Shown in pieces: positions 5,123 to 63,315 of a stretch of DNA of 64,000 nucleotides. The notes beneath the pieces are model-generated. The model ran no database searches. It worked only from the letters and a program-made list of their open reading frames with translations, and was not told where the DNA came from. Made by a program: the position numbers and the translations under genes. The DNA is from Octopus vulgaris (lineage: Eukaryota), in assembly GCA_951406725.2 (NCBI GenBank), contig OX597814.1, positions 159,216,001 through 159,280,000 on the forward strand, written 5' to 3'. Each line of letters opens with the position of its first letter. The first letter of the stretch is position 1.

Positions 5123-5395
5123 CCTCAACATGAAGTTTAGCTGAAGTCGATATTTGATCAATAAGACAAGAATACTCTCCTCTATCCTCCACCTTAACAT
5201 CAGAAATAATAAGTTTGTATTTATTCTGCTCTGTGATGAATTTTGTTCTTTCATTTTCAAATATGAGATTTCCATCTTTCAACCAAACAGGATCGAGACA
5301 ATCTATATTTGTTTCACACATAAAAGTAGCTGTTTCTTGCTCTTTAACTTTAACTTCTGTGAGTGGTTTTATGAATTCTGGCTTCACTTCTTGGA
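5123..5395 (-). CDS. Single-Ig exon
   Basis: 273 nt (267 nt if the AAG acceptor 6 nt downstream is used), phase 1-1, ttatctag| and GAGG|gtaagt. VQEVKPEFIKPLTEVKVKEQETATFMCE...WLKDG...DRGEYSC. Confidence 0.92.
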
Positions 5396-6246
5396 CTAGA
5401 TAAATAAAATATTATAAATGAGACAACAATTTTCTTCATAGTAAAATCAAAATATATTTTTCAAAACTGCCATTCTTCTGTTTTCTTTATCAAAGAGATA
5501 GAAAAAAGAATGTGTCACATATCTGAAAGGAAAATCAATGATGATGAGGAGTAATGGTAGTAGCGATGATAACAAAATAGGAATCGAAAATAATGTTGTT
5601 TGCACAATATATTAAAACTATTTTAGACCGGGCTTAAGGAGTACGTACAATTTTGAAGAAGTGTAAACAAAGAATTTAGTTCCCTCTTTAAACGTGTACA
5701 TTTTATTTCATAAAATGCATATTAATGCATTGATAGCACTTTATTGCTCCAGAACATACAAAATATGAATTTCGAACCGCATAAAATGGATAAATTAAAG
5801 TTAAAAGTCATATTTAAAGAGATACATCTAAAAGAAAACTATATAAATGTTCAAAAATTTAAACATGCTATTGTTCGTTAACATAAATGCATGTATATAC
5901 ATATATTCATACATACATAGATACACGCACACACACACACAATAACACACACGTTAACTTTTTTAAAGAAACTGAAGCTGAAATTTGCCTCGTGATTTGT
6001 GCTCATACCACTTGTTTGAGGGTCATGGTGTGAAACACGAATCGCGAAACAAATTCTCAGTTTCTGTTTCAAAAATACTACTATATATCAAAAAATTATC
6101 AAAGTAGATAATTTTTTTTTTTTTTTTTTTCAGTATTCATGAAATTTACATCTATGGTTTCCATAGTTCCTGCAGAAAATAAATACAAAATTTAAAAATT
6201 ACAACTCATCAAGGAAGATTAATTTTATTTTATGGAGCTTTTAACA

Positions 6247-6280
6247 GTGTGTGTGTGTGCCTATACACACCACAAACACA

Positions 6281-6358
<78 letters not shown>

Positions 6359-6510
6359 TATATACATATACATATATATATTTATATACATATACATATA
6401 CATATATATATACATATACATACATATACATATACATACATATACATACATATACATACATATACATACATATATATATGTATGTATATATATATATATA
6501 TATATATATT
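6247..6510. repeat. Compound (TG)/(CA)/(TA)/(TACATA) microsatellite
   Basis: Direct reading. Confidence 0.95.
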
Positions 6511-7478
6511 CTTGAGTTGTATTTGTTCAACTAGTGATGTGGTCTGAGACTGTGTACTGAAAATAAAAGATTTAAATCGTTGAAGAGCCATTTAGCAATT
6601 TAAAAAGACAAAAACAATGAAATTCATTTTGCATTTATTTCTAGAAATTTTTTAATCTTCGTCGCACATTTACGACCTCGTCCGGCAAAATTTGATTGAA
6701 ACTGTTAGAAGTGTATGCCCAGTTCTTATAAGTCTTCTGGGTTTTCTTATTAGTTAAATCTATGGTAATACGAGTTTATTTTATTCGTGTTGACTGACTG
6801 TGACTTCTTAATAGTGACTAACAATTGTCGTAAGTTATTTCCAGATTTTACTCCTTGTTTATTTACAACTTTGTATGCATCGTTATCATTCATCTCTTTT
6901 ATTATATCCTTTTCTTTTTTCTGCTTTCTCTTCTCGAATTTCCGTACATTAAGTTCGCTATGTATAAACATGATATTCACGAATGTGTGAGTGCGCGCGC
7001 GTGCGTGTTTATGTGTCTGTGTGTGTGTGTGCCTTTGTGTATGTGTGTGCGTGTGTGTATGTGTGTAACATAGACAGAAATAATGGGTTATATAGATTTA
7101 TTTATTTATTATAGGCTTACAGCTGTTTCAGATGCATTTTGGTTCAGTTCATGGTTCAATTTAATCAATCGTTTGATTGAGCGACTGAAAATATAAGGAA
7201 CCACCAGCACAATGCTTTCTTCCTTAGAGCCGAAACAAACCAACTACTTCTGATTTACAAATTTGACTGAAGGACTTCTGCTTCGAATTACCAGAAGCGC
7301 AATACCTATCACAAGACATTTTTTGTTAGCCTGGTGTATTTTTATCTGCATATATATATATATATATATATATATTAATAGTAATGGTAAGGCAACAAAA
7401 GAATGAAAGAGACCTCGATATTATGTAAATAGAGGAATTTATTTGTAATACAATATGTGACAATTATTCGGTTGCCGT

Positions 7479-7586
7479 GATAAAACTCCGAGTTTCGGGT
7501 GTCGGGGCGGAAACCTGCACCCGCATTTCTTCAGTCATCGAGGAATTGCCTCGATGACTGAAGAGATGCCGGTGCAGGTTTCCGCC
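7479..7586 (-). ncRNA. Degenerate hammerhead motif (7479-7539) overlapping a 38-bp inverted repeat (7506-7543 / 7549-7586); Penelope-like remnant
   Basis: Minus strand: GATGA-CTGAAGA...GAAACT-CGG-AGTT-TTATC. Inverted-repeat arms match at 36 of 38 positions with a 5-nt loop. Confidence 0.6.
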
Positions 7587-10500
7587 TATTTTGTGTAAGT
7601 CGGACCTTTTTATATATAAACATATGTTCATTTCTTTTATCAAATGTATTTAACATCATTTGTATATCGACTTGCCTAAATTGTTTGTACTTACATTTAC
7701 TTCTCTAGGTGCTCATGTTTAAATCTCTTGAGCACTACGAAGTGTATCCTATACGGAGAATATCTGTCTCTAATCTATAATCTAAATATATATATGTATG
7801 TGAACACCCATATATTCGAGTATGCTAATAGCTAAACTAATAGACTAATCTTCAGAATGATTCATAATAGTCCAAAATTATCAGCTCTATGACAGAGAAC
7901 TAGCTGACTCAATATATATCCACAGGTAATAAGTGTAGCTAGTAGGATACTATGCTTGATTTGTTTTAAGAGAGCAATAGTCATAGATCAATATAAATTT
8001 TAAAAAGAAACAGTAGATATATACAAAAGATTAAAAAATCACACATAATATACACACATGTTCATGCACATATATGTATGCATTCACATGTAAGCTTATA
8101 TAAGTAAACTAGATAATGAAATCTATATCTTATAATTCTCTTATTCTCTTATATGTTTCAGTCCAATGATTGTGGCCATGCTGGAGCACCGCCATTGCTT
8201 AAATCTTTATTATCCCATCAAATGTAGGTATCTTCATTTCAAACAAATTTGGATCAGTAAATAGTTTCCAAACATCATATCTATTTGATACCTTCAGTTA
8301 TATGTAGTTTATATTCAAATACATTATACCCATATAACAGAATTTGATCAAATCTTCCACTGAACATGTATTTGCTTATAAAATCTGAAACATAAATTAT
8401 ATGTATTAAGTGTATAAGTGAAAGAAAGAAAAAATGACACTATGTTGGTGTGTGTATATGTATGTCACACATAATCTAACAGAAAACTTTGTTTCTAATT
8501 ATGAGCTAAAATAAGATTCTGCAATAACTATCTTCCTTTCATAGTTGTTCTTTAGAATGACTGTAAATTTCAATTGTGAATTATATGAAAATATGATTTT
8601 AAAATATCATAAAATATTCACTTCAAATATATAAGAAATGTGAGCATTAAAGAAGTTTAAATATCATGGACTTACTATAGCAATTAAAAAGATGTATATT
8701 AATACCAATATACAATTCAGACTTAATATATCTGATGTAAAATAAATATCTCTTTTAAGTCATAATTCTGAAATTAACTGTAGGCATTAAGAAAAACATG
8801 GATTTGTAGTCATATGCCCAATTAATATCCACACTGTCCAATTTGGAAGAAACATTCACTAATATAAGGTGAAATAAATATATTTAATTTTTTTTAAATG
8901 GAATCATATCATTTCAAAAATATTTGATAATATTTATCTAATATTATCTAATATTTATTAGATAATATTTTGGATAAAATTTATAGCTAATATCTTACCA
9001 ATTTCATCTAATCTTTTCCTTTAAAACAATGTTATTTTTAAAATATTCCATTTAAAAAATTGAATGAATTTTTATGGCTTCTATAACAGTGTGTTTTTGC
9101 ACAGTATCATCAAAATATAACATTTTGAATTATATTTGGGCCAGAAAAGAGAACAAATCACAAAATACAATTGTATAAGATTACTTTTTGCTTATATTTA
9201 TTTCTGACAAAGCTAATACTTGAGTAGAAAAAAATTATCCTTGGACTATAATCCTCATCATTTCCATTTTTATTAAACTTATAAATTAAAAGCACAAAAG
9301 ATGAGGTCATTTTTACTTTTAAAGTATTCCAAACTGACATCACCATTATCAGAATAATATTGTAAAATATTAATAAATATTTCAATACCTTTTTGAAAAT
9401 AGAAACATGAATTTATCAACCTTTGAAACTTAAACTATCAAAACTTATCAAAGAATAATTAAATTTGTGAAAGAATTTTATGTGATAAAATCTCTCACAG
9501 TTAAAGGAAACTAAAACAGAAAACTAAACTTTATGTATTTTCCAGGCACAGTGAAATCAAAACCAACATTTCCTAAGAATACACAGAAGCAACCACATAA
9601 ATGATTATATAAAGTTATTTAAAAAGCCACTTTCTATCGCGCAGGATAAATTTAATGAATTTAAATAAAGAAAAGTATTTCAAATAACACAGATGGCTGA
9701 CCAAGAACTGAAATAAAAAAAATTAGATTTTTGTTTACAGATTAAATTGATTTGTCACTCAAAATCGGTTTGTAGAATCTTTAAAGTATATTTATTTCCA
9801 TTGTATTATAAATATACAGTTTTTTTTATGATTGTACATTCATTGAATGTGCTGTTCAATCCATAAAACCAAAGTAGCCATGTGCAAATCTGTAACAAAG
9901 TCTATATGCAAATCAGAGTATTAATATATGTTAATTCAAAGCAAAATAATCTTTGTAACAGAGGAATATTCTATCAGCTTGAGAATTTTAAAAAAGTGGG
10001 GCTTTTTCAAATAGATAAAGAAATTTATCACAAAAGTGATTTTTTAAGTAGTTAATACCAAATTTTCTGAGTGGAATGGACAACATCACAATGATGCTTT
10101 TCTATTTCATTTATCCACACAAAAAAGAATATAACTACATAATTATAAAATGTTAGCTTAATATTTTTAAATTTTTTATTAGATGTTTCAATTTATGGCT
10201 TTAAAATTGATATTGAATTTTTGATGCCTCAGAGGTAACAGTTTGACTTTATGGCTCAGCTAAATTTTTATTCAACTAAATTACCTCTTGTCTTACTAAA
10301 AAAAATCATCCATTCATTTAGATAATGGCAAAAACTCTAATAACTTTTAAAAATCTAAATATTCAAAGTAAACTTATCTTATTTATGTATTGCTCAAATT
10401 AACTATTATAAAATGTTCTCTCTTTTAAGTTTTAATTTAATTGTGCTAAATTAATAGAAATTTACTCTAGTAATTCACAGATATACTGTCAATCAAGTAA

Positions 10501-11469
10501 TAACTAAATGAGATCCAAAATGAAATTTAGTTATTAATCATTTAAATATCATTCTGTTACAAATCATATTTATATGCAAATAAATCAAAACACTTAAAGC
10601 ATATTTAAGAATTACAAACATAGGTGTCTCAAATAAAATCAGTGCAATGAAAGAAAACACAATAGCATGCTCAAAATATCAAAGAAATATACTGAATAAA
10701 TCAGGGAATATTTTTTATATAATCTGATAATGTGACATCTAATTATGCAATGCTGAAAACACAATTTTATTATATAATATTTTTAAATTTATGTTAATAC
10801 ATAATTAAGTAAATGTAGTCACAAAATAAAGAAGAAGCATTTTAATTGGATTATACTTTTGAAAATCTAATGACTTGAGAAAGTAATAATCCATATTTAA
10901 ATAGAATCATTAGTTTTAAAGAAGTTTCTAACTGCTTTATGCCATCATATTGAAGATATTATATTTGACTCAGTACATTTAGTGGAATAAAAGATCATAT
11001 TAAATATTATTATAGTAAGAATTTTAAAAATTAAAATTAATATCCTTCATTTTAAAATTATAACTTAAAATCATAATTTAAATTGATTTGCTTTATTCAT
11101 GCTTCAAAATTCATAAAATAGTAAACTTCTATTCCAATATGGATAGAATTATAATATTCATAAATAATTTTAACATTTAAGTAGAATGTCTTTTAAAAGC
11201 ACTATGATTTTATGTTTTAATTACAAAGTAATTTAACCTTGAGCAAAGAAAATTGTTTTGATTATATTTTAATGACTAAAATTTCAGAACGCTTTTATAA
11301 ATATCTTATGATGTAATAGGACATCAGAATTAGTTTTCAATGGTGAAATAAGGAACCTAAAATTTGCAGTATCTATGTAGACACTGCCAAAAAGTTACAG
11401 ATTTTTTAATTTACATCATAGAAATATATGATAACAACAATAAAACAAATAAGGATGATGATGATGATG

Positions 11470-11546
<77 letters not shown>

Positions 11547-12039
11547 TTCTTGCATTAATTAAAATAAAAACAACAATAACAACAATAATTGTTCTAACAT
11601 GAATAAAACCAGAAATTTGGTTTGGGGATAACAGACAATAAAATCATCTCTAGTATTTGAATGGAACTTCATCAACCCATCAACCCTGGAAGGATGAAAG
11701 GTAAAGCTGACCTTGTAGGTTTCTGAAGTCAGAACATAAAGATCTAGGGCAAATATCATGAGGAATTTCATTCAAGACATTAGTGATCTTGCCAATCCAC
11801 CAGTAATAATGTCAGCTAAAGTCAACTTTGCCTTTCCTCTTTCCAGAGTTTCTAGATTAAAGTACTAGTCAAATATTGAGATGGGATAATTGACTTTTCA
11901 TTTCATCCAACTTTCAGACTTTGTGCCAATATTAGGAACATCATCATTATTATTATTATTATACATACATACATTAGATTGGACTGTTGGAAAAGGAAAA
12001 TTCCTAACATCGGGCAACAACAAGTAACTGTAGATGCCA

Positions 12040-13545
12040 AGAACCCTCCAAAGTAACCTTAGATGCCAAGAACTTTCCTTAGTATCCTAGCTGTCCCTAA
12101 TAACATTGTTTTCTGAAACTGTACTAAACTGGGTTTTAACCTATTTCAAATCTTTAGGGACAGTTCCTAATGTACCTATAACTACTGGGCTACATTTTAT
12201 CTGCACTTTCCATAATCTCTCTAATTCAATAGCTAGGTCCTGGTACTTTGCTATTTTTTTCTATACCTCTCATATTCATTTTGTCATCATTTGGTATTGC
12301 AATGTCAATTATCTGGCACTTTTTATTCGCTTTATCTACTACTATTAAATCAGTCCTAGCTTTTATTATTCTGTCAGTCTGAATGTTAAAGTCCCACAAC
12401 ATCTTATATTTCTTACTTTGTAGCACTTTACTAGGTTCATGCTCATACCATTTATCAGTATGGTCAAATTCTACCTTTCTACATAACTTCCAGTGGATTA
12501 CTCTCCCTAGATTGTCATGTCATTTTTTGTATTCTTTCTGTGCCAGCATGCTACATTCACTTACTATGTGAGTAACACTTTCCTCTTTTGATTTGCATAT
12601 CCGACATGGAGAATCTACTTGGTTTTTATCTATCTTGGCTTTTATCCAATTAGTCCTTAATGCTTGATCTTATGCAGTTACCTACAAACTTACTGTCTTC
12701 AGTCTTCCTTTCTGCAATCATAATCATGTCTCACTACTACTATTTGTTGCAACTATCTTTGGCAATCTACCATGCAAAGCCTTCTCCAGCCAGACAGATA
12801 ACTTTTGTTCTTTTTCCTGGTTTTTAACTTCATTTAGCTTTTTGGTTTCCCTATGTCTTGCTGTGACTCTAACAGCTCTTAATAAATTTTCTTCTATTAT
12901 CTACATAGGCGCCTATACTTACTCTAGCTAACTCCACGCAGTCTTCTGCTGATATTAAACCTCTTCCACCTTCCTTTCTAAGTAAGTGTAATCTTGCTAT
13001 ACCTGCCCTTGGGTGGAGTTCTCCAATCATATTGAATTCCTTCCTAGTTCTTCTGTCTAGCTTTGCTAATTCAGTTTTTGTCTAATCTACAAAAGCTGTT
13101 GGGTGTCTAAGTAATGATACTGCCCAATTATTTACAGCCTTCAGTAGGTTCAGACTATTTAGCTTTGACTTCATTAGCTTCCTGATCCTTCTGATGTACT
13201 TCTCAATTTTTGCTTTCATTTCTAGAGTTAGTACTCTGTCAGATTCTAATACTCCTAGATGCTTATAACTCTCTCCTTCTTGCAATGATTTTAATGTCTG
13301 GCCATCTGGTAAGTAGATGTCTTCACTTTTGACTACCTGTCCCCTTTTTGAAACTGATATTGCACACTTATCTATGCAAAATTCCATGCCTATATCTTTG
13401 CTAAAGAGTCTTACAGTCTGTATTAAGTAATCTATCTCTTTTTCATCCTTATTAAAAAACTTCAGATCATCCAATGGTTAAATTTTCCCTTACTATTTCT
13501 GAACTGATACCCTGCCTTTGCCTTCCTTAATACTAAACTGAGGGG
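12040..13545 (-). mobile_element. R4/Dong-like non-LTR retrotransposon, 3' portion
   Basis: MDDLKFF...GMEFCIDKCA...YKHLGVLE (RT) and LWDFNIQTDRII...IIDIAIP (RLE); frameshifted. Confidence 0.85.
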
Positions 13546-13599
13546 GAACAAAAAAAGACATATGTTAAAGAGGATATTTCTTTTTATTACAGGTTTTGT

Positions 13600-13802
13600 T
13601 GGAACTCCTAGGATCTTGCTACATGCAGCCTACAGTACCATGCTATCCATTCTTTTCAGCTATCTAATACTTTCCTGATTATTCTGGCTGTGCCAAGGAG
13701 GCAAACTTTTGTAACAGTTCTACTGAGCACTGTATTCCAATTTCCTTTATATTCCTCTTGATGCCTTCTGATACTGTCCCCAAGGACTATTATTATTATT
13801 AC

Positions 13803-13845
<43 letters not shown>

Positions 13846-14805
13846 TTCTCTTTATCACAAGTTTTGTTGGAGCTCATGGAGTCTTGCATACATAGTGGGC
13901 TTGCTACCAGCAGCCAACAGTACCATGCTATTTGTTCTTTTCACCTATCTTATAATTTACTGATTATTCTGGCTAAGCCAGAATAATCAGTAACAGTCCT
14001 ACTGGCACTCTATTCCAATTTCCTTTACATTCCTTTTGGTACCTTCTGATAATGTTCCCAATGACCCAACAATAATTGGCACTATCTTCACCTTCTTCAT
14101 TTTCCATAGCCAGGCTATTTCCTACTTAAGAGGGTTGTAGCTATCTATCTTTTCACCTTCCTTTTTGATTATTTGTGGGTCAAAGGGGCAAGCAACATCA
14201 ACCTTAAAGCCTATGTGGTGCACCTTGTCCACCACCACTAGGTTCGGTCTAGTATGCTCTAGCATCTGATCTGTTTGAATGGGGAAATCCCAGAGGATTT
14301 TGCTTATTTCTTACTCTGCCACTCTCTGTGGTTTGTGCTTATACCATGTCTTGCCTCTTTCTAGCCCTCACTTTTTGCACAGCTTCCAATGGAGCACTTT
14401 TGCTACCTGGTTATATTGCCACAACTTGTAGGGGTTTCGGGTAAGTCTAGAGCTTTCATTCGTGATATGGACAATGGTTTCATCCACTCCATTGCAGATG
14501 TGGCATAGTGGAGACACTTGCTCATTACTTGGGTTGACCCTCCAGTTCATGGCCAGAGCTTGGGCCTGCACTACCAGTATAGTGCTCTTGGTCTTTTTTT
14601 TAGGGTTCCTTTCATCAGCCAATCCCACCTATTTTTTCCAGCAACTTTTGTTGTGGCTACATGGAATTGATTGTGTAGTCCCTTCTTGCATAATTCTTCC
14701 TCATGTCCTTTTTGTATTTCTTTTGTTTTCCCTTTGTTCTCTGCTCTCAATACTCCCTCGTTCCTAACTGTCACTAGCAAGGTTTCCTTACTTTGGGCTA
14801 GGTAT
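13600..14805 (-). mobile_element. R4/Dong-like non-LTR fragments (two 3' ends) interleaved with (TTA)n
   Basis: LLGTARIIRKVL C-terminus; CHIC...ETIVHI CCHC-type region; LHWKLCKK. Confidence 0.8.
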
Positions 14806-14829
14806 CATTATTATTATTATTATTATTAT

Positions 14830-14864
<35 letters not shown>

Positions 14865-16139
14865 TTGTTATCATCATCATCATTATCATCATCATCCTCA
14901 GCGGATTTACAAAATTAGTAGGGTGTCAGACATAAATGTCTTGTGACATTTAGTTATATCCCTCTTTCTGAAAGGAAATCTTGTCAGGAGTTGATAAAGA
15001 AATGGAAATGACTGAATCAACTATCACACAAAATAAATTGTTCTTTGTTAAGAACCTATGCAGAAAACCATTATTATTATACATGAATCTGTAACATTAG
15101 AGAAAGAAATAAGATACCTTGCCTTTGCCTAGTCCAAAACAGCAGAGCAGTAATTAAATAGACATCAGCAATGACATTAATAATGAAAATAATAAAGATA
15201 ACAGCAACAAATAAAAATAATCAGATAAAGCTAGACCTTTAGTGGGAAACTAAATCCCTTGAAGGAAAATATGCACAGAGAATTTTTTTTAAATAGTTTA
15301 TGAAAAATTCTCATTTGTAGTTGATCAACTGTAGCCTAAGATTTAAAAGAAAGAGTTCTAATAAATTCAGCAGTCTTCACACCTATTCCTTTCAGCAAAA
15401 CCTTCTGAAAATGAAGTTGACCAAACTTGCAGAATACATAGATTATGTATGTGAGGAATCCGCTGCCAGGATATTTCCATTGGCATGAATGTCATAAGTA
15501 TGAACATGATATGGTATTGAGAAAGTTCAATACAACTGCACAATATGATTCTGTTTACAAAGAGGGGGATTATAACTTAACTTCTAATCATAGTTTTATA
15601 TGACAAAAAATATATATATATATGTACAATGATTGCTATACCTTACCTTGAAGAAGGAAGCCTATTAAAGGAACCAAAACCTTTCAAAATGCACAAATTT
15701 AGAAGCAGAAATAGCAAGTCTCTTTCACGAAATTTTAGCACTGTTTAAAATATCAGGCTTCCAGTAGTGTTTGTCAAAAGTGGAGAGTCCTTACAAGAAA
15801 GGTATTTTCATAACGAAAATGGTTCATGGAAATTGAGACTATGAAATAGCTCCTTTCCCTGTAAATGGTTATTTTGACATTTAAGTGTATTTAAATATTA
15901 TCAGATGTAGTGGTCTTCATTTATAAAAGTGATTATGTGATGGCACAATCAAAATATCTAAAATTCAAAAAGTTAGGTCAAAAGTAAAATGAAGACATGT
16001 CATCTGTGCAAAAGGAAACAGAATCTGTAGGACTAATTAAACTATAAATCATTGATAAAAAGAAAATACTGTAAAATTAGAGATCTTGGAGAACACCAGG
16101 CTTTGTAGTATAGAGGAATGTGAAAGTGCTATCAATACA

Positions 16140-16545
16140 TGCTGGGTAAAATGTTTGGTGGCACTTTGTCTGCCTTTAAACTCTGATTTCAAATTCTGCC
16201 AAGATCAACTTTGCCTTTAATCCTTTCAAGGTCAATGAAATAAGTACCAGTTAAGTACTAGGGGTTCAAAATTTCAGGCTTTGTACCAATAATAGAAAGG
16301 ATGGTTATTATTATTATTATTATTATTAAGGTGGCAAGCTTTCAGAATTATGAGAACATTGTATAAAATGCTTAGTGGCATTTCCTTTGAGTTTTTAGCT
16401 CTGAATTCAAATCCTACTGAGGTCAACTTGCCTTTCATCATTTCAGAGTCGATAAATGAACTATCAGTCAGATACTGAAATCAATGTAATCAACTAATCC
16501 CCTCCCACTAAAATTGATGGCCTTGTGTCACAATTTGAAATCATT
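16140..16545 (+). mobile_element. Two tandem tRNA-derived SINE copies (Meta-domain-like core)
   Basis: Share the core TCAACTTTGCCTTT.ATCCTTTC...GTC.AT..AAT.AGTACCAG with copies at 34297-34490 and 53689-53905. Confidence 0.65.
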
Positions 16546-17834
16546 ATCACTACTGCTACTACTGCTATACAATAATAGTTTCATGACTGGAAATGAATGC
16601 ATCCTATTGAGCAGGTCTGTATAGGAATTTTGTACTCCACATTTTGTCAAAAGCTTCCTTTTCTAATAAGAAGTGCATCGGCCTTTGTTTTGCTGGATTG
16701 ACAGTGAATTTGGTTTAACAAACTCCATTTTTCTGAATACTGAAAAGAACTGACATGATAAACACATATAATTTTTTTGAATATTGGAATCTTGCCAACC
16801 TATAAAAGTAAAATCAACATGATACACAGCTAAAGTGCTTCTAAGGGCAGCAGCTGGGCAACACATAGTTCTTAGAATCAGACTGTTGAATGCTTATGTA
16901 TATGAGGACATATAATGAATTTATTGAGTTTATTATTTTTGCATATATTTTTGAAATTAGCTATTTAGAGCACTGTTTGAATTTTCCAGAAAATGTACCT
17001 CATCTGTTATGTTTCCACCAAGAGGAAACATACGAGAATAAAAGTCTGGAAAATAGAAACTACTAATTTTCTTTTCTTACTCTTTCTTCAAACTTTTCCT
17101 CATGAAGAATAGATTAAAACTATTAAGAATAGGCTACAGTTTGGCTGAAGAATAATACGTATGTTTCTTACTTTATTGAAATAGTTATATTTTAAGGATC
17201 TAATCTTCATTTTTGTAGTAATTTCAAAGACTATATACTTCAGAAATAATATTATTAAATTTCATATCAAATTTGTGTTAAATTTTAGGTTGAATTCATG
17301 ATGATTTTGGATTTTTAAACATTGGAAACTGTACCACAAAAAGTACAGAAGCAAATTCCAATATCATGCATTATATTATGAGAGAAAACTTAATAGTGCA
17401 ATGGCAAAAGTGTGTGTGCTAAATAAGTAATGTCACAATGTGGGATAGTTATAAATAATGTGCCACATGGGTTCATCCTGTGCACAGCACTCAGCTTCTG
17501 GTTTATAATTGATTCCAATTTTCAAAGTAATTATGCAAAATATTTTCTGGTGACACCAAAAATTACCGCTCAGTGTGTTGGTGGAAGGTTTTGATTTGGC
17601 TGCAAAAAGACATCAACAAATTGATGGCATAAAGTGATACACAAATATTAAGGTTAGGTAAAACAACAATTAGAAAATTTATAGTCTTATTTAACACATA
17701 AATATGAGTAGTATCAATCTCAGTAATTTGCAACATCGTTCAACAAAAACCGCAAATAAACTTAAATAAGCTTGAAATTAAAAAATAATTAAGCCTGTAA
17801 AACAAGTTGATCTCTAATATATATCTTATATAAA

Positions 17835-17840
17835 CATGCA
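17835..17840 (-). promoter_or_regulatory. UGCAUG Rbfox-type intronic splicing element downstream of the micro-exon
   Basis: Minus strand reads gtgagttcaga-TGCATG. Further copies at 17365-17370 and 18617-18622. Confidence 0.5.
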
Positions 17841-17851
17841 TCTGAACTCAC

Positions 17852-17875
17852 CTATTTCTTCATAAGTTTCAGTTT
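17852..17875 (-). CDS. Candidate 24-nt micro-exon encoding (E)TETYEEI
   Basis: ttatttatttcag|AA ACT GAA ACT TAT GAA GAA ATA G|gtgagt. Consensus splice sites, phase 1-1, open frame, TGCATG at +12. Confidence 0.7.
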   Translation of the reverse strand, partial: KLKLMKK

Positions 17876-18740
17876 CTGAAATAAATAAGCATGACATTTA
17901 TTAAGATGTTTTAAATTATAAATTTTATCAAATATGTACCCATATTTCATATTTTTAATGTGTAAATTAGTGCCAAAATTTATTTTGTCTGAAAATTTTA
18001 CATCAGTACCCTCTACCCATTTCAAATAAATAATTTATTAATACTTAGATGCTTTGTTTTAGATTCCTGAAAATTTTAGCATCACTGGATCTAACAATTC
18101 TGAAAACTGCACAAACTAGATCCTCTAGAAAGTGCCACATAAATCAAGATCATAAACTCTTGACCCGTTAACTATCAAGTTCTCAATAAAATGTATTAAA
18201 ATTGAATGGAATTCATTTTTTTTTAGCAAAACAAAAAATCATTTCAAAGACAAGGAAGATAATTATTGCTAAAACAAAACAACACAAATTTAGTATTACA
18301 TAATATTTGAATATTAAAAATTAAATTTTAAATCATAAAGAAAAGATTTTAATAAAAACATAATGGCATATTTTCAAACAGAAAAGCCCAAAATAGAACA
18401 TGAAGTCTTCTACCTAACAATATATATTATTATAAAATGGTAAGTAAAAGTGAATATAATAGTGTATGAATCTACAATGATACAATTGTTTTAGTCTCAA
18501 CACACTATCTCAGATCAAATATTGGCCGTATAAATGCAACTCAATACTATATTTTCCCTTTGAGAAGAGAAGTAAAAATTATTTATTTGCACCAACTTCT
18601 TAAGCACTGGACTTCTCATGCAACTGGCTTATGGATAATATTCCAATATATTTTCAGGTTTTTAATTGTCACCACATGATATTTTTTTTTAAATCAGAAA
18701 AAATAGCATTTACAAAACATAAAAAGAAAGAAATACACAC

Positions 18741-19007
18741 CTTCAACTAGTTTAGATGTAGTTGTAGAGACTGTTCCAGCCACACAAGTGTAATCTCCTT
18801 GATCTTCTACAGTAACATTGTTAATAATAAGTGTGTGCACTTTCTTATCTACTTTCAGTTCCATGCGATCATCAAGTTTTAATTCCTCATCATCTTTCAG
18901 CCAAGTTACTCTTATATTTTCCTTGGACATTTCACAAGTGAATATTGCTGTATTGCTCTCAGTGACCCTCACTTCACATAATTGCTTAGTAAATCGAAGA
19001 GTATCTT
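18741..19007 (-). CDS. Single-Ig exon
   Basis: 267 nt, phase 1-1, ttttag| and GAAG|gtgtgt (weaker donor). EDTLRFTKQLCEVRVTESNTAIFTCE...VTWLKD...DQGDYTC. Confidence 0.9.
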
Positions 19008-19076
19008 CTAAAAATTAAAAAAAAAAAAAGAAATATTTTAAAATATAGTTAATAATAATAATAATAATTATTATTA

Positions 19077-24579: not shown

Positions 24580-25868
24580 CGAGGGACGTTCAATAAGTAA
24601 TGCCTCTGACCCACTTGCAGTTGTTGGATCTAGCTGAAATTTTGTATGTGCAATTATTTATATCTCTATAGAGTAAGTGACAAATTACAGCTCTGAATTA
24701 ATTGTGGTTTCTGATTTACAGGTGTTTGAACCGAGTCAAGTGTGAAATGGAGCCTGTTGAGTGTTGAGCAGCGATCCGGTTTTTGTATTTGAAAGGACGC
24801 ACACCACGGGAGACTTTTGATGAAATGAAAGCAACTTATGGTGATGATGCCCCATCATATGACCTTGTAAAACGCTGGCATCGTGAATTCAAACATGGTC
24901 GGAACTCTGTGGAAACAGCTCCCAGATCTGGTCGCCCCTTCTGCCATTGATGAGGCATCTGTCCGTCAAGTTGAGGCTGCCATTTTGGAAGATCGACGCA
25001 TAATTATTCGCCAAATAGCCCATGAGGTCAAGATTAGTACCGGGTCTGTGGAAACTATCATTCATGACCATTTGCATATGCAAAAGGTGTCTGCCAGATG
25101 GATTCCCAGGTTGCTCACGCCTTTCCAGAAGCAAGAACGCGTCGAGTGCTCGAGGGTGAATTTGGAGATGTGCAAGAAGATGAGTCAAAATTTTTCAAAA
25201 GACTGATTACACAGGATGAAACCTCGGTCCATCACGATGATCCAGAGACCAAAGCCCAGTCAATGCAGTGGAAGCACCGTGACTCACCCCCTCCAAAGAA
25301 GGCAAGGGTGCAGCCCTCCGCTGGCAAGGTCATGCTCACAGTCTTCCGGGACCAGGACGGAGTAGTGATGACAGATTTCCTGGCAAAGGGTACCACAATT
25401 GCAGGAGCCTATTATGCTTCACTTTTGAGGAAATTAAGAGAAGTTATCAAAATCAAGAGGCGGGGCAAGATCAGCAAAGACATCCTCCTCCTGCAAGACA
25501 ATGCTCCGGTCCACAACTCGCTTGTCACCAGATCAGAAGCACAGGCATATGGCTATGAACTCCTCCCCCATGCCCCTACTTTCCTGACCTTGCACCCTCT
25601 GATTTTCACCTCTTCCCAGTCATGAAGTTGTTTTTGAAAGGAAAGCGTTTCCCAGATGATGCAGCCTTGATTTCTGAAGTCACGTTCAGGTTGGAGGACC
25701 AAGCTGGGGTCTTCTACAAAAACGGTCTCCAGAGCTGCATCAAACAATGAGAGAAATGCGTAACTCTGGGTGGTTCCTATGTAGAAAAAGACTAATAACT
25801 GTGCCAAGTTTCGTTGCTCTACTGCTATGGGAAGTGGGTCAGGGGCATTACTTATTGAACGCCCCTCA
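24580..25868 (+). mobile_element. Near full-length mariner (DD34D-type) with inactivated transposase
   Basis: 1289 bp, TA TSD, TIRs CGAGGGACGTTCAATAAGTAATGCC / GGCATTACTTATTGAACGCCCCTCA. ATG at 24747; motifs SGRP, WIPRLL, TQDET, LQDNAPVH, PDLAPSDFHLF, GGSYVEKD*; stops and frameshifts. Confidence 0.95.
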
Positions 25869-26130
25869 TATAAGGTTCTGCTGAAAAGTTACTATTGATA
25901 AACTGGAGCAAAATTCCATGCTGCATCTCTTTGTCAGTGAACAGGTCACGGTCTCAAAGCAACAAAAATATTTCGACAAATTAAATTTAAATGTTGAAGT
26001 GAATCTAACGGTTTTCGTGTTTCTTAAATGGCTTATAAACACTTTCCATGCTGCAATTTTTTCATTTCAGCACACGATCTCAGATCAGGTCACTTGTTAT
26101 GCAAGTACATCTCCGTAAAATATATATATA

Positions 26131-42467: not shown

Positions 42468-42965
42468 CTGTTATACAACATTCTAATGTCACTGTCTTTT
42501 CTTCTTTAGTATAGACATCTTCACTGATGCTAGTAATAGCAGGAGGACACCTTCCATCATCTTCTTCGGTAGCATTTCCATTTTCAAATATCTCTTCTTC
42601 TTCTTCAGGTTTATCAGGAGACATTTTTCTTTCATATTCAGTTGCTTTTTTCAAAGAGTCTTGTTTGGTCGTATCAACTCGTGATTTCTTTGACATCATT
42701 TCACTTACTGATTCCATGTGTTCAGAGTCAACAATATCATCAAGTGATATTCTTCTTTTGTCCGATTTCATAATTTCTTCATAAGAATAAACATCAACAG
42801 ATTGGGATTTCATCATTTTGCTTGATTTTGAAGTTTGTACTTCTTGTCTTGACATACTAGATAATATACTTTTATATTTATCATCTTCATAACTTTCCCT
42901 TGTTTCAGCTTGCATTGCATCCATAATATGAGTTGTGGAACGATCGTCCCCATTAAGCATATCAT
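42468..42965 (-). CDS. Exon (most 5' one seen) of titin/obscurin-like multi-Ig protein: acidic/Ser-rich linker plus start of an Ig domain
   Basis: 498 nt, ttgcag| acceptor and ACAG|gtaaat donor, phase 1-1. Encodes DDMLNGD...VYSYEEIMKS...CPPAITSISEDVYTKEEKTVTLECCIT(G); lies inside ORF 42415..43044. Confidence 0.85.
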
Positions 42966-44364: not shown

Positions 44365-45000
44365 TATCATCATCATCATCATCATCATCATTTAGCGTTC
44401 GTTTTCCATGCTAGCATGGGTTGGACGGTTTAACTGGAGTCTGTGAAGCCAGAAGGCTTCATCAGGCCCAGTCAGATTTGGCAGTGTTTCTACAGCTGGA
44501 TGCCCTTCCTAACGCCAACCACTCCGTGAGTGTAGTGGGTGCCTTTTACGTGCCACCTGCACAGGTGCCAGACAGAGCTGGCAAACAGCCATGAACGGAT
44601 GGTGTTTTTACATGCCACCAACACGGGGGCCAGGCGAGGCTGGCAACAGACACAAACGGATGGTGCTTTTACGTGCTACCGGCACGGGGGCCAGGCGAGG
44701 CTGGCAACGGACACGAGCGGATGGTGCTTTTACGTGCCAACAGCACGGGGGCCAGGCGAGGCTGGCAACGGACATGAACGGATGGTGCTTTTACGTGCTA
44801 CCAGCACGGGGGCCAGGCGAGGCTGGCTACGGACACGAGCGGATGGTGCTTTTACATGCCAACAGCACAGGGGCCAGGCAAGGCTGGCAACGGACAAACG
44901 ATCGGATGGTTCGCTTAACCACAGCTGCAATTTCCACTGATGTTGATTTGGTTTGATTTTGACTCTTCTCACTGGTCTTGTCGGGTCTTCTCACGCACAG
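44365..45000 (-). mobile_element. RTE-tail-type retroposon containing a 61-bp minisatellite (about 6 units, 44538-44910)
   Basis: (CAT)n-CGTTTTCCATGCTAGCATGGGTTGGACGG...CTACAGCTGGATGCCCTTCCTAACGCCAACCAC is shared with 46130-46710, 48200-48560 and 36900-37050. TGGTG recurs at 44600, 44661, 44722, 44783 and 44844. Confidence 0.7.
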
Positions 45001-60230: not shown

Positions 60231-60586
60231 CAAATATACCAATGGTACAAAACAAGCGAAATGAGAAACATTTGTTGGATAGAGATGATGGAACTACATT
60301 CATTAAAGAGCTGGTGCTGCTCTGGTGATTCCTAACAAAGATAAGATCTCCCCCAAGAGTAGTTGTGATCATTTGCTCAGGCTCTGACGACACACTATAT
60401 GTATTTCTGTTGTAAATGGAGACACTTATGCATCATGACACCACTCCTATTTTGTACCGTCCTCTCTGCAATGCCCTAAGTTGTTTTCAGAAAATGTAGT
60501 AGATGAATGAATAAGTGTTTCATGAATATTCATGAATAAATGTTATGTTCTCAACCTCCAGTGCCTACAGATACGGGCGAAGCTCC

Positions 60587-63315
60587 TGTAGTGAGCGTAT
60601 ATAGCGGCGCGCGCGCGCACCGTCCATTTTCTATCTCGCGCGTGCGAGTGTTGGTGCCTTCACCAAGGCACAGAAAGGAAGGGCCCTCTCGCGCATGCGC
60701 GAACCACCGGAAGCACGACCCTGGCCAAGGCAGGGGGATCGTAGAACGTTTGACCACTAGCAGCAGCAAGCGGTGACTTTGAGACATGGCTATCGAAGGC
60801 AACGGTCACGTATATTCTCTCTCCGTCAGGCCTTGATTCTAGCAGCAGTCGGCCGAATGCCTTTAACCAAATTGTTGCCGACCACATTCAACTTCCCTGT
60901 ACGACGCCATCTTGAACCCGTTCTGGTTTTTAGCGGCTGAATATTGTAAATATTACAATCGATTAACTTTCAGCCTTGCGCGCCCCGAACCAAGGACATC
61001 AGATAACTACTTATTGTTATTGTTACCAAGAAAGAGAATAAAGTAGTATATATATATTTTACGTCTGCGTCTTGTTGTTTTTGACTGGTAGAGTCTGGAT
61101 TATTAAAGCAACGGCTAGTGATTGCTTTCTTGTACCCCGAAAGTACAAGAGAAGATATTCACACTCACGCTAAGTTCGTTACAGTGGTGACCCCCCGACG
61201 TGATTCTGGTCTAAAACCAGAAATCACTGAACAACAAAAAAAATCCAGTTTTTCTGCGAAGTCGGAACACGATTTAACTCTACGCATTCAACTTTCGACG
61301 ATTTGTTTCCGTCCTCTCGGACCGTTATAGAAGGAACCCTTTTATTCTTCAACATGATGACGGACGCCATCACATCATCGATGCTATTTCTCTGCCTTCG
61401 TCATCATCATCGTCGTTTTTCTACTTCACGTCGTCGCTATCTTCGTCGCCATCATCACTAAGAACGATGTTGTCTCAAGTCCACTACAGTCGCCACCACC
61501 ACCGTCGCCTTTCAACACCGTCGACCTCCACCAAGATGTACATAGCAACTCGCGGAAGTTTGGTCCACTTGCCGTTTGTGCATTAGCACACCAAGAATTC
61601 ACAGCCCAGCACTATCTACGAGATTTCTTCTGTTCCAGTTAACCTGTCACAGCATTGAAGCCACAACCGCTACACGATATGTGTTCAATCGGCATCTGCA
61701 TTTGTGATCTCAACATTCTGTTACAGAACGAACTGCTATTGTGCATCAGGCTATTACAGACTGGTAAATTAACTCTTGTCTGAAATAGCACATGAGAGAC
61801 ATTTTTCTATGCGCTGTATTTTTTTATATTTTGCTCGCATTCACCTTGTATGTATTTCTGTCGCACACACGTACACACACATAAATGCTCTCTCTCACAT
61901 ACATACGTCACACATGCTTTTCTCGCTTGTTTTTTTTCCATGCTGAATTTGCCTTTTGTGGACACACCTCATTTCTATAGACCCTAGCGGTCACGTATAC
62001 ATAGAGAGGGTTGTTTGTTCATTATAACGCGCCAGCATGTCATACCTTTGTTCCTGTACGAACGAGGCATATAATCGCTCAACCACTGGCATATACTTGC
62101 TGTTTTTTGGTCTGGCAAGCACTATTGCATTTCATGCGCCTTGCTTCGCACGTGTATTGCCTTGTTTTTAGCAACACGTTTGCGTTGGCTTAGTTCTTTT
62201 CCCGACTCATAGGACGTCGGATGTTCACATGCGTTGCGCCATGTTTAGGCGTAATTATTTTTCCCTGTTAGACCCCTGTTTGGTCACGTAATTAACAGAG
62301 AAAATTATCTGTGTCGCGCATCACACCAGCGTGTTTGCACCTTTGCCTTTTGTGTTACTAGCGAGCTTCTGTCAATTCCATTTCCTCTCCTGCAGCAATT
62401 GATTTAACTGCTATTTTGCAGGATCAACCACCTTTAGAGAAGTTGGATTTAATTTCGCCTAGGTTCATTGACTGTGAGTTTTGTTTTCCCTCCGCTCCTT
62501 TCAGCGGAAGGGTTTATACTTTGTGACGTATACACTTTCATGCATGCACTCTTGATTTTTGCTCATTGAGTATTTTTTCTCTTTTTCCTTTAGTAAATTT
62601 CTTGTGTATGTTATAAATTTTGCCATTATATTATTGTGTGCTATTTGGTTATCTGGTGTCCACCTTGAGTTTAAAGTCACTACAAAGGATTTTGTGTCGT
62701 GCTACCCACTGGAGGGGAGCCTTGTAGTGACGCTATATAGCGGCGCGCGCGCGCACCGTCCATTTTCTATCTCGCGCGTGCGAGTGTTGGTGCCTTCACC
62801 AAGGCACAGAAAGGAAGGGCCCTCTCGCGCATGCGCGAACCACCGGAAGCACGACCCTGGCCAAGGCAGGGGGATCGTAGAACGTTTGACCACTAGCAGC
62901 AGCAAGCGGTGACTTTGAGACATGGCTATCGAAGGCAACGGTCACGTATATTCTCTCTCCGTCAGGCCTTGATTCTAGCAGCAGTCGGCCGAATGCCTTT
63001 AACCAAATTGTTGCCGACCACATTCAACTTCCCTGTACGACGCCATCTTGAACCCGTTCTGGTTTTTAGCGGCTGAATATTGTAAATATTACAATCGATT
63101 AACTTTCAGCCTTGCGCGCCCCGAACCAAGGACATCAGATAACTACTTATTGTTATTGTTACCAAGAAAGAGAATAAAGTAGTATATATATATTTTACGT
63201 CTGCGTCTTGTTGTTTTTGACTGGTAGAGTCTGGATTATTAAAGCAACGGCTAGTGATTGCTTTCTTGTACCCCGAAAGTACAAGAGAAGATATTCACAC
63301 GCTAAGTTCGTTACA
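60587..63315 (+). mobile_element. Intact-ended non-autonomous LTR retrotransposon (probably Gypsy-derived)
   Basis: LTRs 60587-61183 (597 bp) and 62723-63315 (593 bp), TG...CA termini, CTCC TSD. PBS TGGTGACCCCCCGACGTGATTC at 61185-61206; PPT GGAGGGGAG at 62711-62719. No gag/pol ORF in the 1539-bp interior. Confidence 0.93.

Follow-up and report, generated by a model that had tools for sequence, protein, structure and literature searches.

A 24-nt micro-exon in the obscurin-type gene of Octopus vulgaris is spliced into all the transcripts examined and likely encodes an acidic, flexible hinge between two neighbouring Ig domains, Ig11 and Ig12, rather than serving as a switch. The exon is located on the minus strand of the window analysed here, which is the whole 64,000-nt stretch of contig OX597814.1 (assembly GCA_951406725.2) from position 159,216,001 to 159,280,000. 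An earlier note, made from the letters of this window only, had interpreted the exon as a hidden, tissue-regulated element that adds a phosphotyrosine dock to the chain. The observation is confirmed and this first interpretation is partly supported; its two functional components, the splicing switch and the docking of Src, are unsupported. The features discussed below are listed in Table 1.

Table 1. Micro-exon, flanking exons and introns, splicing motifs and the related linker array. Positions are those of the window unless a contig is named.
Feature	Position	Strand	Description
Micro-exon	17852..17875	-	24 nt, phase 1-1; peptide ETETYEEI (P0106, 1143-1150)
Upstream exon	18741..19007	-	267 nt; one I-set Ig domain (Ig11) with atypical last strand
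Downstream exon	5123..5395	-	273 nt; two extra codons (VQ) and one I-set Ig domain (Ig12)
Upstream intron	17876..18740	-	865 nt, GT..AG, removed in 4/4 runs; contains a short interspersed repeat
Downstream intron	5396..17851	-	12.5 kb, GT..AG; no extra exon in the aligned contigs
Donor GTGAGT	17846..17851	-	from sequence
TGCATG (Rbfox-type motif)	17835..17840	-	at +12; candidate by sequence
3' splice region	17876..17905	-	YTRAY branch-like site near -26, TGC at -16, T-rich tract, CAG
ACTAAT	17966..17971	-	at -96, within the 111-nt AG-free zone; QKI-like or distal branch-point-like
30-nt linker micro-exon array	G000:C1:158,930,836-158,955,118	-	same gene, outside the window

The host gene is of the obscurin/UNC-89 type. 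Eleven exons between 36737 and 2173, the micro-exon included, give a stop-free translation of 898 residues that matches exactly within the protein P0106, described as 'titin-like [Octopus vulgaris]', and Ig11 and Ig12 are the 11th and 12th Ig domains by our own count. Each I-set Ig domain has its own exon, and related Ig exons are scattered across ~350 kb of the same contig in a genome of 2.8 Gb. The O. vulgaris models (CAI9716209-12 and -14) are annotated as 'titin-like', and the relative in O. bimaculoides, XP_052826240.1, as 'obscurin, partial'. The order of domains in the chain, tandem I-set Ig followed by SH3-RhoGEF-PH and then by Ig and Fn3, is likewise that of obscurin/UNC-89: P0001 has 17 I-set stretches, and SH3_2, RhoGEF and PH all score above cut-off in part of the O. 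bimaculoides protein P0002. Two C-terminal kinase domains also belong to the obscurin/UNC-89 plan, and no kinase family is listed among the precomputed domains of the two models covered, P0095 and P0106. At least ~30 Ig domains precede the SH3-RhoGEF-PH module in P0106 and P0002, and a long Fn3 run follows it. According to the available text of PMC12812942, an Ig array in front of this module is the arrangement of chordate obscurin and not that of the nematode or insect protein.

The 24-nt exon, its GTGAGT donor, its ttatttcag acceptor, its phase of 1-1 and its open frame were all found as the earlier note had described them, and joining the exons reproduces the product KLVE-ETETYEEI-VQEVKPEF, with YEEI placed between neighbouring Ig domains of a giant chain. 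Micro-exons are spliced exons of 27 nt or less, and this exon, small and spliced at GT-AG sites, belongs to that class. When splice matrices trained on 13 other exons of the window were used to scan the introns from 36737 down (31,892 intron bases), the micro-exon scored 21.5 and ranked first among 841 in-frame candidates of 6-51 nt; the runner-up on the sense strand scored 13.7 and the best of 765 antisense controls 14.6. An additional exon near 39.06 kb was excluded from the training. The acceptor is strong, with a score of 13.4 (13 ordinary exons: 3.8-16.1, six of them lower), and three of these exons have a donor weaker than that of the micro-exon (8.1). At its end (18741-18770, minus strand) the preceding Ig exon reads TTTSKLVE where the usual type is TTAKLIVE, a difference that may be drift owing to the long linker that comes next.

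The surroundings of the exon had been described as free of the repeats that fill the other introns. This is true of tandem repeats, which are missing from 14896 to 19067, the fourth longest such gap in the window with five others exceeding 4 kb; it is not true of interspersed repeats, one of which lies at ~18410-18540 and has 20 other matches in the genome by a search of this intron alone. Other elements are seen elsewhere in the window. Intronic fragments at 24871-25888 resemble a mariner-type transposase, a GC-richer element is present twice in nearly identical form, ~2.1 kb apart, at 60540-60890 and 62690-63020, and a tandem array of six 61-nt units occupies 44538-44910.

The strongest evidence for inclusion comes from public contigs. 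Among 24 runs listed, 20 contain matching sequence, all of it as assembled contigs and none recorded as RNA, and four of them, from four studies, were aligned. Both junctions that the earlier note had proposed are present in all four. The joint 18741>17875 is formed by removal of the 865 nt with GT..AG ends, and for 17852>5395 the contig letters past 17852 match, as reverse complement, the opening 30 nt of the exon that begins at 5395. Three contigs of 5.1-5.2 kb span the micro-exon without a break, and the fourth run, labelled as a different organism, carries the identical 24 nt. A loose end at 18741, as would be expected from a skipped form, is seen in none of the four runs among contigs aligned to 16900-19010. 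Assembled contigs lose minor isoforms and the tissues of the runs carry no labels, so that the contigs identify inclusion as the main form and skipping may be missed; muscle-containing samples are also likely to be over-represented, because all runs were found through this gene.

Annotated proteins agree with the contigs. ETETYEEI is present in all five O. vulgaris isoforms read, to which the accession series suggests one further isoform should be added; these models come from automatic annotation and are possibly derived from the same assembly. The five isoforms vary widely in the later Ig array and have the 24-nt exon in common. In O. bimaculoides the octapeptide reads ETEMYEEI, both in the obscurin XP_052826240.1 and in the two proteins of that species' cluster, and the peptide is kept in a second octopus, as the note had expected of a real exon. 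The exon is not hidden, as had been thought, since it is already part of public annotated proteins of two octopus species. The skipped form is represented in none of the four runs and in none of the seven annotated proteins of these two species.

The spacing of the Ig domains and a structural model suggest what the included residues do. From Ig to Ig the distance is 99 residues across the micro-exon versus ~89 in the otherwise linker-free tandem, the excess being the eight residues of the exon and the two codons (VQ) that follow, and this increment of 10 equals the increment of 10 at the 30-nt linker micro-exons downstream in the gene. In the AlphaFold2 model of Ig11-linker-Ig12 (mean pLDDT 88.8, pTM 0.56) both Ig domains are confident, Ig11 ends in a short strand (residues 80-85), and residues 91-98 have pLDDT below 50 and are without secondary structure; the micro-exon corresponds to residues 90-97. 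The low pLDDT of the linker is expected anyway, because 22 of the 24 rows of the alignment are vertebrate sequences, 26-34% identical, that give little support at the linker. In the available text of PMC3859903, short linkers fix the domain orientation in titin and no obvious linker separates the Ig domains of vertebrate obscurin, whereas the octopus gene adds linkers of 10 residues by means of micro-exons. From the short-linker orientation in titin and the absent linker in vertebrate obscurin we infer that an acidic spacer of 10 residues should act as a hinge. Under the preferred reading, strong splice sites, perhaps together with Rbfox bound to the UGCAUG at +12 in muscle, would keep the exon included, and the 10-residue spacer would uncouple Ig11 from Ig12 in the same way as the 30-nt linkers would in the later Ig array.

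Twelve of these 30-nt linker units were found between duplicated Ig exons, ten with an intact AG and two decayed, and they encode spacers of the type E-x-P-x-x-x-E-P-D-T. The 24-nt exon shares with them the phase of 1-1, a GTGAGT-type donor and an acidic 10-residue spacing between Ig exons. The 30-nt units alone are proline-rich and duplicated together with Ig exons, and they have neither a downstream TGCATG nor a tyrosine. Homology of the 24-nt exon (with 6 nt added) to the 30-nt micro-exons was rejected, as the best match is 14/30 nt and the codon-shuffle p is 0.47. The annotated isoforms (n=5) use different Ig-plus-linker blocks of the array. One unit, at 158,939,241, is used in none of the five O. 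vulgaris isoforms although its sites are intact, and P0002 of O. bimaculoides includes it, which makes it a candidate cassette. Two decayed copies of Ig exons with stop codons lie in the duplicated array at G000:C1 ~158,940,700-158,943,400. Of the two features, this array, which lies beyond the window, is the more unusual.

The alternative that survives best is a regulated cassette, in which Rbfox acting at +12 would drive inclusion in muscle and the exon would be skipped in other tissues or muscle types or at other stages, so that the linker would alternate between 10 and 2 residues. The motif positions given by the earlier note are correct: TGCATG begins at +12, a TGC stands at 17891 (-16), and ACTAAT runs from 17971 to 17966 (-96). 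TGCATG within 45 nt has a background of 1.4% and is the sole motif that stands out here. It occupies the proximal downstream intron, the position from which UGCAUG favours inclusion of Rbfox-activated exons, and within +100 it accompanies none of the 13 ordinary exons and none of the twelve 30-nt micro-exons. This uncommon motif, absent near the other exons, argues against fixed inclusion and fits a regulated cassette, as do the AG-free zone of 111 nt upstream (the third longest of 14), the preservation of the reading frame on skipping (the joined exon ends being in phase 1-1) and the alternative splicing of the gene elsewhere. Rbfox1 binds UGCAUG and regulates the splicing of sarcomere genes in fly muscle (10.1101/2021.05.09.443278), where obscurin goes unmentioned in the available text. 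Against the cassette stand the strong acceptor and the lack of the skipped form in the four runs (contigs of unlabelled tissues) and the seven proteins, and the tissue-regulated switch of the note is accordingly unsupported. Of its Rbfox-like signal, the TGCATG at +12 stands as a fair lead that may aid inclusion, and Rbfox control is a candidate by sequence. A search of the genome for the Fox-1_C family returned no match anywhere, its controls included, and is uninformative; none of the 76 pattern matches that a search for orthologous intron DNA gave in metagenome contigs was confirmed. We regard the regulated cassette as unlikely on balance, and still as the main competitor of an included hinge.

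A further alternative, compatible with either pattern of splicing, is that the exon supplies a tyrosine, Y1147, which upon phosphorylation would recruit a Src-family kinase to obscurin. The available text of PMC7337045 describes pYEEI as the best ligand of the Src SH2 domain, bound in an extended conformation (polyomavirus middle T peptide; PDB 1SPS). The octopus chain has the same four residues in a predicted extended and accessible stretch, the unstructured hinge of the AlphaFold2 model, following acidic residues, and the model suggests that the tyrosine is probably exposed; the octopus motif differs from the ligand in that it sits in a short linker between two folded domains and is a candidate ligand by sequence. 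YEEI occurs twice in P0106 versus 0.23 expected from composition, a mild excess noted post hoc. The second copy, at residue 165 of P0106 (window 42468-42965, minus strand), belongs to a non-Ig N-terminal insert and reads YDEI in the relative P0130.

The conservation of YEEI in O. bimaculoides favours such a dock at first sight but is uninformative, because the surrounding Ig region keeps 846 of 900 aligned positions (94%) and all 15 of its tyrosines as well; with 7 of 8 residues of the micro-exon peptide identical, YEEI as read from the two sequences is conserved no better than the background. The comparison is confined to the genus Octopus, as the searches found no sequence spanning the linker from squid, cuttlefish or any other mollusc. 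The best 120 of 2349 matches in the orthologue search consist of 118 sequences (28-36% identical) that are vertebrate by name or by placement and two from O. vulgaris, and further searches yielded one octopus sequence among 39 candidates, one exon-only open frame from a single candidate, and one match at 94% identity. YEEI also occurs somewhere in 14 of 118 other long obscurins, and the proposal, although structurally possible by the model, depends on a four-letter match. The words 'tyrosine' and 'SH2' do not appear in the available text of a 2026 review of obscurin (PMC12812942). Src docking at this site therefore seems improbable, and YEEI has most likely arisen as a by-product of a linker rich in E, T, V and I.

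A broader proposal would combine these elements into a linker code, in which micro-exons set the length of the hinges, at least ten 30-nt proline-rich spacers doing so in the array and an Rbfox-controlled 24-nt exon adding a phosphotyrosine dock for Src-family kinases in chosen muscle types; we consider it very improbable. Hardly any weight can be given to a neural, Srrm3/4 (eMIC)-dependent micro-exon, which the note had also raised. Exons of that class are marked by an extremely weak 3' site and a long AG-free zone, with UGC close to the AG and a UCUC-rich tract at some distance from it (10.1101/2021.02.24.432780; 10.1101/2024.09.17.613571; available text). The octopus exon resembles them in being short and frame-keeping, in its TGC at -16 (seen in none of the 13 ordinary exons), in its long AG-free zone and in the CTAAT upstream. 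It differs in its strong 3' site, in a T-rich tract that directly adjoins the AG with the TGC upstream of it, in the absence of UCUC and CUCU over 60 nt, in its muscle-type host gene and in being the main form in all four runs aligned, whose tissues carry no labels; TGC within 15 nt has, moreover, a background of 14.6%. The proposed QKI site fares no better, as ACTAAY, whose background is 6.7% per 100 nt, is also found before 2 of the 13 ordinary exons and 4 of the twelve 30-nt micro-exons. A pseudo-exon that arose by chance in an AT-rich intron, a class for which these introns offer 841 open AG..GT candidates, is ruled out by the splicing in four of four runs and by the annotation in two species.

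Two octopus species already have the 24-nt exon in their automatic annotation, and its inclusion seems to be the default. In a literature search on octopus obscurin, micro-exons, linkers and cephalopod splicing (available texts, with subscription journals outside its coverage) we found no paper on this exon or on Ig hinges built from micro-exons; the tables of tissue-specific exons in 10.64898/2026.09.05.749416 include O. bimaculoides and may report how far this exon is included in each tissue, and its available text does not name obscurin. The value of the exon is that it marks how an octopus obscurin-type gene builds hinges between Ig domains from micro-exons, which vertebrate obscurin does without. 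If skipping were specific to a muscle type and the tyrosine were phosphorylated, the exon would connect splicing with filament flexibility and with tyrosine-kinase signalling in the muscle of cephalopods.
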